Of a stretch of 64,000 nucleotides of DNA, positions 62,951 through 63,504 are shown piece by piece. The translations under genes and the position numbers were made by a program. This DNA comes from Acetivibrionales bacterium (GTDB taxonomy: Bacteria; Bacillota; Clostridia; Acetivibrionales; JBMNNH01): the NCBI GenBank assembly GCA_050953835.1, contig JBMNNH010000018.1:3030-67029 (forward strand), in the 5' to 3' direction. Below the pieces are notes generated by a model. That model made no database searches, was not told the origin of the DNA, and worked only from the letters and a program-made list of their open reading frames with translations. How positions within the stretch are numbered: the stretch's first letter is position 1; each line of letters starts with the position of its first letter.

Positions 62951-63133
62951 TTAATATTTAACATCAAATATGTTTTCCGGCTCTTCATTCAACTTTTTAT
63001 TTATTTTTGATACTTCCTCACACCATCGTCTTCTTTCACGGTGCTCCAGATTCATTATTTGCTCATGTGACCAATGCAAATAATAAGCTAAAAATGCCAA
63101 TTCTTCATATAATCTTTTTTCAGGATAGGTCAC
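62951..63133 (-). CDS. Small ORF in the -1 frame of the chaperone gene (E'-like extension or independent 60-aa protein)
   Basis: GTG start overlapping the upstream TAG (TAGTG). It is in frame with a -1 shift at the T TTT TTA heptamer 15 nt upstream. Confidence 0.5.
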   Translation of the reverse strand: MTYPEKRLYEELAFLAYYLHWSHEQIMNLEHRERRRWCEEVSKINKKLNEEPENIFDVKY

Positions 63134-63504
63134 TATTCCTGAATTGATAAAAAATCCATCGGTGCCTCAAACTCATGTCCACATTTGGGGCAAACAGCAG
63201 GATATGTTGGAATATCCGACATATTGATTCTTTGATAAAGATCCTGTAAGTATGCAAGGTCAGAAGTAAACAAACTTTCAATAACCTTGTTGGATATTGA
63301 TTTTAGGTTCCCCAACTTTGTTATTACCCGTGAAAGCAATATTATTGTCAGGTATCCAGGATTTTGCTGAACCCTAGGATCTCTCATAGGCAATATCTCA
63401 TCAGCCGCAGTAGCAAGCCTCATAATCCCCTTCCTGTGCAAGTCCCCATTTGCATCCACATAACCCTTTGGTAATTCAAATTCATATTCTGTCTGAAAAG
63501 TCAT
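63133..63504 (-). CDS. Tail assembly chaperone-like protein (P2 gpE position)
   Basis: FELPKGYVDANGDLHRKGIMRLATAADEILPMRDPRV resembles the gpE/gp41-type chaperone N-terminus. It has a C-terminal CPKCGHEF zinc-ribbon half-site. Located between tube and tape-measure-like genes. Confidence 0.55.
   Translation of the reverse strand: MTFQTEYEFELPKGYVDANGDLHRKGIMRLATAADEILPMRDPRVQQNPGYLTIILLSRVITKLGNLKSISNKVIESLFTSDLAYLQDLYQRINMSDIPTYPAVCPKCGHEFEAPMDFLSIQE
63148..63154 (-). promoter_or_regulatory. Candidate -1 programmed ribosomal frameshift heptamer T TTT TTA
   Basis: The minus strand reads ATG GAT TTT TTA TCA, so the heptamer is in X XXY YYZ register. A -1 shift reads ATC AAT TCA GGA ATA GTG ACC... 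into ORF 62951..63133. A 5-bp stem CAGGA/TCCTG (63141-63121) starts 6 nt downstream. Confidence 0.5.

Follow-up and report, generated by a model that had tools for sequence, protein, structure and literature searches.

A conserved slip site points to DUF6760 as a probable −1 frameshift extension of a tail-assembly-chaperone-like protein in contractile injection system loci

The window analyzed here is a stretch of 64,000 nucleotides (nt) from an Acetivibrionales bacterium (assembly GCA_050953835.1, contig JBMNNH010000018.1, positions 3,030 to 67,029 of the forward strand). It carries, on its minus strand, two small overlapping open reading frames (ORFs) in the gene cluster of a contractile injection system (CIS) or tailocin-like element. 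The first, ORF1, encodes a putative tail-assembly-chaperone-like protein, and the second encodes a protein with the DUF6760 domain. We propose, with a probability of roughly 0.8, that the two ORFs are a single recoding unit of the λ G/GT (P2 E/E+E′) type, in which DUF6760 would be reached by −1 frameshifting at a slippery heptamer near the end of ORF1. An earlier note on this DNA had suggested that the CIS keeps the chaperone frameshift of phages, and comparison of homologous loci supports that suggestion in three respects: the frame relation, the slip motif, and the missing start codons. What is new is the family; the kind of mechanism is well known from the chaperones of long-tailed phages.

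The 3′ end of ORF1 reads ...GCA CCG ATG GAT TTT TTA TCA ATT CAG GAA TAG. The heptamer T TTT TTA stands in X XXY YYZ register, and four codons (TCA ATT CAG GAA) separate it from the TAG. The −1 frame at the end of ORF1 is open from 31 nt 5′ of the stop. The DUF6760 ORF, 60 amino acids (aa) long if taken as a separate gene, is in the −1 frame relative to ORF1, and its GTG shares a G with the TAG. The earlier note had reported the heptamer in this register close to the ORF1 stop, and it is indeed there. The reading after the slip, ATC AAT TCA GGA ATA GTG ACC TAT CCT GAA AAA, is the frame of ORF 63133..62951, and the predicted fusion does come to 119 + 65 = 184 aa with the junction ...APMDFL-INSGIVTYPEK. 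A downstream stem, CAGGA/TCCTG, had also been described. It is present and somewhat larger than claimed (UUCAGGA..UCCUGAA plus an inner 3 bp), starting 4 nt past the heptamer and covering the ORF1 stop together with the Y-P codons of DUF6760. This 10-bp interrupted hairpin folds at −9.6 kcal/mol (z = −2.65), with 5/200 shuffled sequences equally good. Coordinates of these and the other features are collected in Table 1.

By itself, the heptamer of this AT-rich window is not significant. At a window G+C of 37%, X XXY YYZ heptamers are found in register at 0.94% of the codons of long ORFs; T TTT TTA ranks second among them in frequency, and 4/53 long ORFs of the window have an in-register heptamer within their last 11 codons. 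Moreover, the TAGTG overlap of stop and start brings about the −1 relation automatically. The significance of the slip site rests entirely on its conservation across homologous loci.

Two sets of loci were compared. The first comprises 80 genomic loci selected through ORF1, with G+C from 0.24 to 0.68, and includes members from Oscillospiraceae, Lachnospiraceae, Paenibacillus, Cohnella, Brevibacillus, Desulfocucumis, and Methanosarcina. The second comprises 80 metagenomic loci selected through DUF6760; the 160 loci together extend from 0.24 to 0.72 G+C. Removal of near-duplicates left 145 non-redundant loci for the motif tally. Relative to ORF1, DUF6760 lies in the −1 frame in 80/80 ORF1-selected loci, and it overlaps an upstream 0-frame ORF in 80/80 DUF6760-selected loci, where 73 of the upstream ORFs are detectable ORF1 homologs. 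One ORF1-selected locus, L078, is without DUF6760.

The motifs of the 145 loci fall into the following classes: T TTT TTN (67 loci), A AAT TTT (40), G GGG GAR (33), G GGG GGA (1), and none (4). That is, an in-register T TTT TTN or A AAT TTT occupies the equivalent site in 107/145 loci, at a distance of 13–28 nt from the ORF1 stop. Taking all classes, the motif is always in register and lies 7–28 nt 5′ of that stop, with the exception of one G GGG GAR locus, where the distance is 43 nt. Of the motif-bearing loci, 140/141 have an open −1 frame at the motif. Two different canonical heptamers substitute for each other at one position, and this interchange of two X XXY YYZ sequences in fixed register is best explained by tandem tRNA slippage. 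The earlier note had named, ahead of the comparison, a slippery heptamer and −1 continuity conserved in homologous loci as the features to look for, and both were clearly found. The interchange at this position of T TTT TTN, A AAT TTT, G GGG GAR, and start codons is spread over the G+C range 0.24–0.72.

The codons around the heptamer tell what is being conserved. The codon preceding TTT TTN is GAT (45 loci), TCT (16), AAT (5), or GCT (1), so that four amino acids are represented while the third base is always T. Likewise, AAT TTT is preceded by GTA (28), ATA (11), or CTA (1), always with a third base A. From the amino acids and the codon usage of each locus, 6.7 heptamers are expected in 80 loci, as against at least 63 observed; this last figure is a lower bound, because an earlier Phe was anchored in about 12 loci, and the class counts for the 145 loci are the reliable ones. 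The heptamer persists at 60–72% G+C against codon usage, which predicts it there with p of about 0.01. Among the observed heptamers are those of loci at 0.61–0.68 G+C with p = 0.006–0.04 each; an example is L075 (0.68 G+C, CTG GAT TTT TTG), with an individual p of about 0.008. Since the amino acid before the heptamer varies but the third base is fixed, and since heptamers exceed the codon-usage expectation, selection acts on the nucleotides and not on the protein. The pattern of protein conservation changes at the same point. On the 3′ side of the heptamer, 0-frame conservation collapses to BLOSUM values of 0.14 to 0.95, versus 3.4 to 4.4 upstream, and past the heptamer conservation of the −1 frame equals or exceeds that of the 0 frame in 5/5 spacing groups.

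Start codons offer a further line of evidence. The N-terminal motif of DUF6760, YP..LYEE, is nearly invariant, and it follows that translation must begin 5′ of it. Between the heptamer and YP..LYEE, no ATG, GTG, or TTG is found in the −1 frame of 84/107 canonical-heptamer loci. Conversely, all four motif-less loci (L039 from Brevibacillus, L013, L106, and L137) have a canonical start codon for DUF6760; in the Brevibacillus locus, which reads GGAGGGAGTATGA, DUF6760 has its own Shine-Dalgarno (SD) sequence and ATG. The distributions of start codon and motif are complementary (hypergeometric p of about 0.003, calculated by hand), and the presence of start codons in exactly the four motif-less loci suggests that the frameshift was replaced by independent initiation several times.

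The close relatives of the window show the same. In the four closest (71–90% ORF1 identity), T TTT TTG is kept in 4/4 and the GTG in 1/4, the other three having no ATG, GTG, or TTG at the GTG position. Gene callers have dealt with DUF6760 in these relatives by cutting it to 34 aa (a Marinisporobacter metagenome-assembled genome, MAG) or by starting it at an ATA (Crassaminicella profunda, Herbivorax). The earlier note had allowed that the second ORF could start on its own at the GTG. In this window the GTG could be used, and it may add some free DUF6760; it is not conserved, being kept in only one of the four relatives.

A few loci depart from the usual layout. In four loci from Oscillospiraceae/Flavonifractor (L010, L013, L015, and L075), some 45 additional codons follow the ORF1 stop before the DUF6760 domain is reached; no stop interrupts the −1 frame in this extension, and the heptamer is kept in 3/4. 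In L013, the heptamer is lost, and ATG/GTG starts are present. On a high-G+C metagenomic contig, ORF1 and DUF6760 form a single, clean in-frame ORF of 185 aa (P0107, L082:3001-3558), which was confirmed in the DNA and has the junction ...TCG GGG GTG ATC GGC TAC CCC. This singleton, counted in favor of the recoding unit, may be a natural fusion, or it may come from an assembly indel at the G run. Four other fused ORFs from the protein database (P0001, P0003, P0004, and P0013) are singletons from short assemblies with junctions that resemble indels or deletions, and they were not counted as evidence.

Two elements flanking the heptamer are candidate stimulators. Upstream, the Glu codon 14 nt 5′ of T TTT TTN is GAG in 53/54 cases, versus 23 expected from local usage; GAGG is found exactly 10 nt 5′ of the slip site in 43/72 T TTT TTN loci, and it is invariant in the four closest relatives of the window. 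This GAGG may be an SD-like stimulator of the dnaX kind, which its spacing recalls. Downstream, hairpins specific to lineages start 4–6 nt past the heptamer in different clades. In one clade hairpin, GTAGAGCTT..AAGCTCTAY, 87% of cells are paired versus 27–45% in slid controls; in another, GCCGGA..TCCGGC, the figures are 85.5% and 17–49%. The case for hairpins as stimulators is suggestive only. We rejected the idea that all members of the family share one downstream RNA structure (mean z = −0.63 over 74 loci), and an Rfam search of 62700..63700 returned only two sub-threshold chance matches, to snoRNA models.

The proposed sequence of events is as follows. Most ribosomes would read ORF1 to its TAG and release the 123-aa chaperone. 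A minority would slip back one base on T TTT TTA, with the Phe and Leu tRNAs re-pairing on UUU UUU, a slip probably aided by the GAGG 10 nt before and the small hairpin 4 nt after. Reading in the −1 frame would then pass through INSGIV into DUF6760 and yield a protein of 184 aa, ORF1(1-119)-DUF6760, for which the predicted tryptic junction peptide is CGHEFEAPMDFLINSGIVTYPEK. By analogy with phage chaperones, the part of ORF1 common to both products would bind the 996-aa tape-measure candidate encoded downstream, and the DUF6760 extension, made only rarely, would attach this complex to proteins of the tube or the baseplate hub and so let the tube polymerize around the tape measure. We infer the slippage itself, its efficiency, the roles of GAGG and hairpin, and the functions of both products.

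Several points weigh against this proposal. Support for the frameshift is wholly comparative. The 160 loci are phylogenetically related, so that their counts are not independent events, though ORF1 identities of 60–75% make synonymous saturation likely. For the residues D-F-L, local codon usage alone would produce the heptamer of the window with a probability of 0.45, and with a GTG preceded by a weak AGGA at the stop overlap, the window alone cannot decide the mechanism. Covariation in the hairpins is thin, at 1–2 compensatory pairs, and because both hairpin arms are coding, the stems may be by-products of conserved codons. The chaperone identity of ORF1 is likewise open to objection: Pfam Gp41_Mu matches 5/17 ORF1 homologs below threshold only (best E = 5.5e-4), and an AlphaFold2 model of ORF1 from a 45-sequence alignment reached a predicted local distance difference test score (pLDDT) of 60.8 and a predicted template-modeling score (pTM) of 0.35, with only meaningless Foldseek matches in the PDB (E > 2).

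The G GGG GAR class is the last of these points. Here NNG GGG GAR replaces the heptamer in the last 7–16 nt of ORF1 in 33/145 loci, examples being L056 (Methanosarcina), L040, L068, L096, L138, L154, L160, and L162. This motif does not belong to the canonical X XXY YYZ sites. The codon before GGG GAR varies (CCG, CAG, TTG, GTG, TCG, CTG, TGG, ATG) and always ends in G, and 18/33 loci have no ATG, GTG, or TTG ahead of DUF6760. High-G+C members of the class have ATGA or TTGA overlaps, so G GGG GAR could instead be an SD sequence. With this class and some start overlaps in the family, there is no single uniform mechanism.

Could ORF1 and DUF6760 simply be two separate genes? Ribosomes would then reach DUF6760 solely by initiating at the GTG of TAGTG, independently or in a coupled manner, and the heptamer would be an AT-rich codon-usage accident for D-F-L. 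Gene callers and NCBI do annotate two genes, and the stop/start overlap gives the −1 relation for nothing. The GTG has an AGGA upstream, yet the 3 nt between them are too few for a normal SD, and of the four closest relatives, three lack the GTG and still keep the heptamer. Codon usage in this genome gives such a heptamer with p = 0.45, and in-register heptamers are common in the window, but at 60–72% G+C the heptamer persists against codon usage. Members such as L039 clearly have an SD and ATG of their own; start codons, however, appear exactly where the heptamer has been lost, and 84 of the 107 heptamer loci have none at all. We regard two separate genes as improbable.

Two further explanations would account for the motif without ribosomal frameshifting. 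One is transcriptional slippage, in which RNA polymerase would slip on T6 and leave some mRNAs one U short, with DUF6760 in frame. Homopolymer runs are a substrate for polymerase slippage in some bacterial genes, and there is a six-T run at the junction; efficient slippage, though, is known from cases with about nine or more A or T, for which six bases are short. In addition, AAATTTT takes its place in 40 homologous loci with no run longer than four, which fits tandem tRNA slippage instead, and the strict X XXY YYZ register and the fixed third base of the preceding codon are ribosomal features. This explanation is very improbable. The other takes the T-rich or G-rich motif for an initiation enhancer or SD sequence that would let ribosomes re-initiate at ATA or another non-canonical codon. 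In its favor, the clade of the window conserves GGAATAR at the stop, two NCBI genomes have the gene start at ATA, and G GGG GAR is SD-like, with an ATG or TTG following 4 nt later in some loci of that class. T TTT TTN and A AAT TTT, by contrast, are not SD-like, yet they are exact slippery heptamers in register; the group A loci have neither ATA nor another near-cognate start in the linker; and from the heptamer onward the −1 frame is open in 140/141 motif loci and conserved at least as well as the 0 frame. The register, the third-base rule, and the missing start codons do not fit an initiation enhancer, to which we give hardly any weight.

As to the identity of ORF1, the earlier note had called it chaperone-like. 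The sequence gives weak support, with a match to PHROG 508 'tail assembly chaperone' (E = 1.7e-6) beside the sub-threshold Gp41_Mu matches, and the position after sheath and tube agrees; the assignment remains weak. No Pfam or NCBIfam family matches ORF1 above threshold. The protein bears a C-terminal CPxC motif resembling a zinc ribbon, and its relatives in databases number more than 7,900. In the Acetivibrionales MAG, NCBI lists two separate genes, MGI6778046.1 'phage tail assembly protein' (ORF1) and MGI6778045.1 'DUF6760 family protein'. Sequence and profile searches of the PDB with ORF1 and DUF6760 gave chance matches only. A 36-sequence DUF6760 profile, searched against all PDB chains with Cis6/Afp6/Pvc6 spike plugs as the candidate identity, matched no CIS protein at E up to 10, nor did a search with a single sequence; as no Cis6, Pvc6, or Alg6 chain was matched, DUF6760 is not filed as Cis6.

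DUF6760 had no confirmed match in the 2.9 million viral contigs of IMG/VR and was not found in the 50,697 records of the GenBank phage collection, where ORF1 has remote matches only to BCD7 and two Streptomyces phages. The nearest ORF1 relative in a true phage is a 258-aa 'hypothetical protein' of Bacillus phage BCD7, a myophage (L081, NC_019515.1 61565..62338). It is a single long ORF without DUF6760, situated between two tube genes and the annotated tape measure gene. In the literature covered, to which subscription-only papers do not belong, no publication was found that names DUF6760, and none on a frameshift or tail assembly chaperone in a CIS locus, such terms occurring only in passing or in reference lists.

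The contig order is: housekeeping genes, sheath (595 aa), tube (161 aa), ORF1, DUF6760, a tube-like gene closest to the CIS5 inner tube adaptor, the 996-aa ORF, CIS_tube, a gpD-like gene, spike, gp25, two baseplate-J genes, and a P2-I-like gene. The Pfam families found in the cluster are Phage_T4_gp19 (twice), CIS_tube, Phage_base_V, GPW_gp25, Baseplate_J (twice), Tail_P2_I, Pvc16_N, and DUF4280. The 996-aa ORF, a tape-measure candidate by size and position, has no match in Pfam, NCBIfam, or PHROGs, and it occupies the place that corresponds to the BCD7 tape measure gene after the ORF1 homolog. Its translation, on reading, has an apparent internal duplication of about 60 aa (KKHxYSxLFKDSLF ... 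NKEKPQYI). The earlier note had placed the chaperone between tube and tape measure. ORF1 does follow sheath and tube and precedes the candidate, from which it is separated by a second tube-like gene.

No capsid or terminase genes were found in the cluster. An AAA+ ATPase (Cis15) was not found among the upstream genes or among the ORFs of at least 110 aa scanned at 29.8–64 kb. With no AAA+ found, the locus fits 'CIS or tailocin-like' and not the strict definition of an extracellular CIS (eCIS) in PMC12210884. We class the element as a contractile injection system or a tailocin-like cluster, not as a prophage.

Table 1. Features of the ORF1-DUF6760 overlap and of the surrounding cluster (window positions unless a locus is named)
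Feature	Position	Strand	Remarks
ORF1, 123 aa, ATG start	63504..63133	minus	Putative tail-assembly-chaperone-like, short 0-frame product; PHROG 508 match, position after sheath and tube
GAGG, Shine-Dalgarno-like element	63168..63165	minus	10 nt 5′ of slip site; candidate dnaX-type upstream stimulator (putative)
Slippery heptamer T TTT TTA, X XXY YYZ register	63154..63148	minus	0-frame codons GAT TTT TTA = D117 F118 L119
Hairpin UUCAGGA-A-UAG(UGAC)CUA-UCCUGAA	63143..63119	minus	Candidate downstream stimulator, weak evidence
TAG stop of ORF1	63135..63133	minus	Ends short product four codons past slip site
GTG overlapping stop (TAGTG)	63133..63131	minus	Possible independent DUF6760 start; AGGA 3 nt upstream
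−1-frame stretch of predicted long product, 65 aa	63148..62951	minus	Linker INSGIV, then DUF6760 domain TYPEKRLYEE...DVKY; TAA 62953..62951; base 63148 read twice
DUF6760 ORF as separate gene, 60 aa	63133..62951	minus	Pfam DUF6760 E = 2e-18, profile positions 7-55 of 89
Upstream tail tube protein, T4 gp19 family	63609..63995	minus	Pfam Phage_T4_gp19 E = 1.2e-32; 161 aa in full contig
Downstream second tube-like protein	62499..62933	minus	Pfam Phage_T4_gp19 E = 1.4e-29; NCBIfam CIS5_fam E = 2.2e-24, 85.8 bits vs. cut-off 260
996-aa ORF, candidate tape measure (presumed chaperone client)	59493..62483	minus	Size and position only
MORN-repeat and HAMP-domain proteins	42545..46894		Between baseplate/fiber genes and cap/PAAR-like genes
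Insertion sequence (IS)-type DDE transposase (DDE_Tnp_IS240, rve)	39175..40272	plus	Inside cluster; splits baseplate/fiber genes from cap and PAAR-like gene
Pvc16_N cap gene	35639..36226		Beyond IS transposase
DUF4280 PAAR-like gene	34413..34799		Beyond IS transposase
Miscalled DUF6760 genes	L166:1247-1351, L167:1166-1348, L168:1169-1351		No start codon present

What would the recoding unit mean? DUF6760 would gain a concrete job, namely that of a C-terminal extension added to a tail-assembly chaperone by recoding, and thousands of annotations would need correction: ORF1 has more than 7,900 relatives, NCBI lists the two genes separately, and gene callers cut DUF6760 short or start it at ATA. 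Chromosomal contractile injection systems, archaeal ones included, would come under the phage rule that such chaperones are made in a short form and a long, frameshifted one. It would bear on how injection systems set their length, which is relevant to their engineering as protein-delivery devices. The family would also be a natural series for the choice of slip site, with T TTT TTN, A AAT TTT, G GGG GAR, and start codons at a single position. The mechanism itself is known and only the family is new, which makes the result useful more than a surprise.

The spike plugs Cis6, Afp6, Pvc6, and Alg6 are about 55–60 aa long, and their genes lie beside the inner tube-adaptor gene of the CIS; Pvc6 is essential for assembly (PMC8894136, PMC12546770). 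DUF6760 is like Cis6/Pvc6 in size and neighborhood. Unlike it, Cis6 genes are free-standing and are not reported after a chaperone, where DUF6760 follows ORF1. A joint reading can be put forward tentatively, and we hold it to be rather doubtful: DUF6760 might be the obligate frameshift extension of a CIS-specific chaperone, in a recoding family with three slip motifs, and perhaps a Cis6-like plug. If so, DUF6760 would not be a free-standing family. It would have the role of λ T or P2 E′ while unrelated to both and apparently absent from true phages, and it would be widespread across Bacillota and archaea (Methanosarcina), with interchangeable motifs that include the non-canonical G GGG GAR. 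Such an extension might itself be a Cis6-like plug of the baseplate hub, or bring one there, and so tie the tape-measure chaperone physically to the start of the tube.

Among known frameshift sites, that of E. coli dnaX uses A AAA AAG, flanked by an SD-like element on its 5′ side and a hairpin on its 3′ side. The window has an apparent three-part layout of this kind, with GAGG 10 nt upstream, the heptamer, and a hairpin 4–6 nt downstream. The heptamer differs, however; the dnaX shift truncates its protein, whereas here the shift would extend it, and the stimulator roles proposed here derive from conservation alone. P2 E/E+E′ and Mu gp41 share with ORF1 the contractile-tail setting, with sheath and tube upstream, and ORF1 has weak matches to Gp41_Mu and PHROG 508. 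Unlike in P2 and Mu, the Pfam matches of ORF1 all fall below the gathering score, ORF1 has a CPxC motif, and the extension is DUF6760.

The closest parallel in arrangement is to the tail-assembly-chaperone frameshift that Xu, Hendrix and Duda reportedly described in 2004 as conserved in long-tailed phages, with λ G/GT among them. Neither domain here is detectably related to G or T, and the heptamer is T TTT TTA where λ has G GGA AAG. A second tube-like gene stands between the chaperone and the tape-measure candidate, and the host element is a chromosomal CIS without capsid genes. As with λ G/GT, on the other hand, a small gene follows the tube and lies ahead of the tape measure (here a candidate), a slippery heptamer is found a few codons before its stop, and a short −1-frame ORF would need no start of its own. 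As in λ, too, the predicted outcome is a short product and a rarer one extended at its C-terminus.

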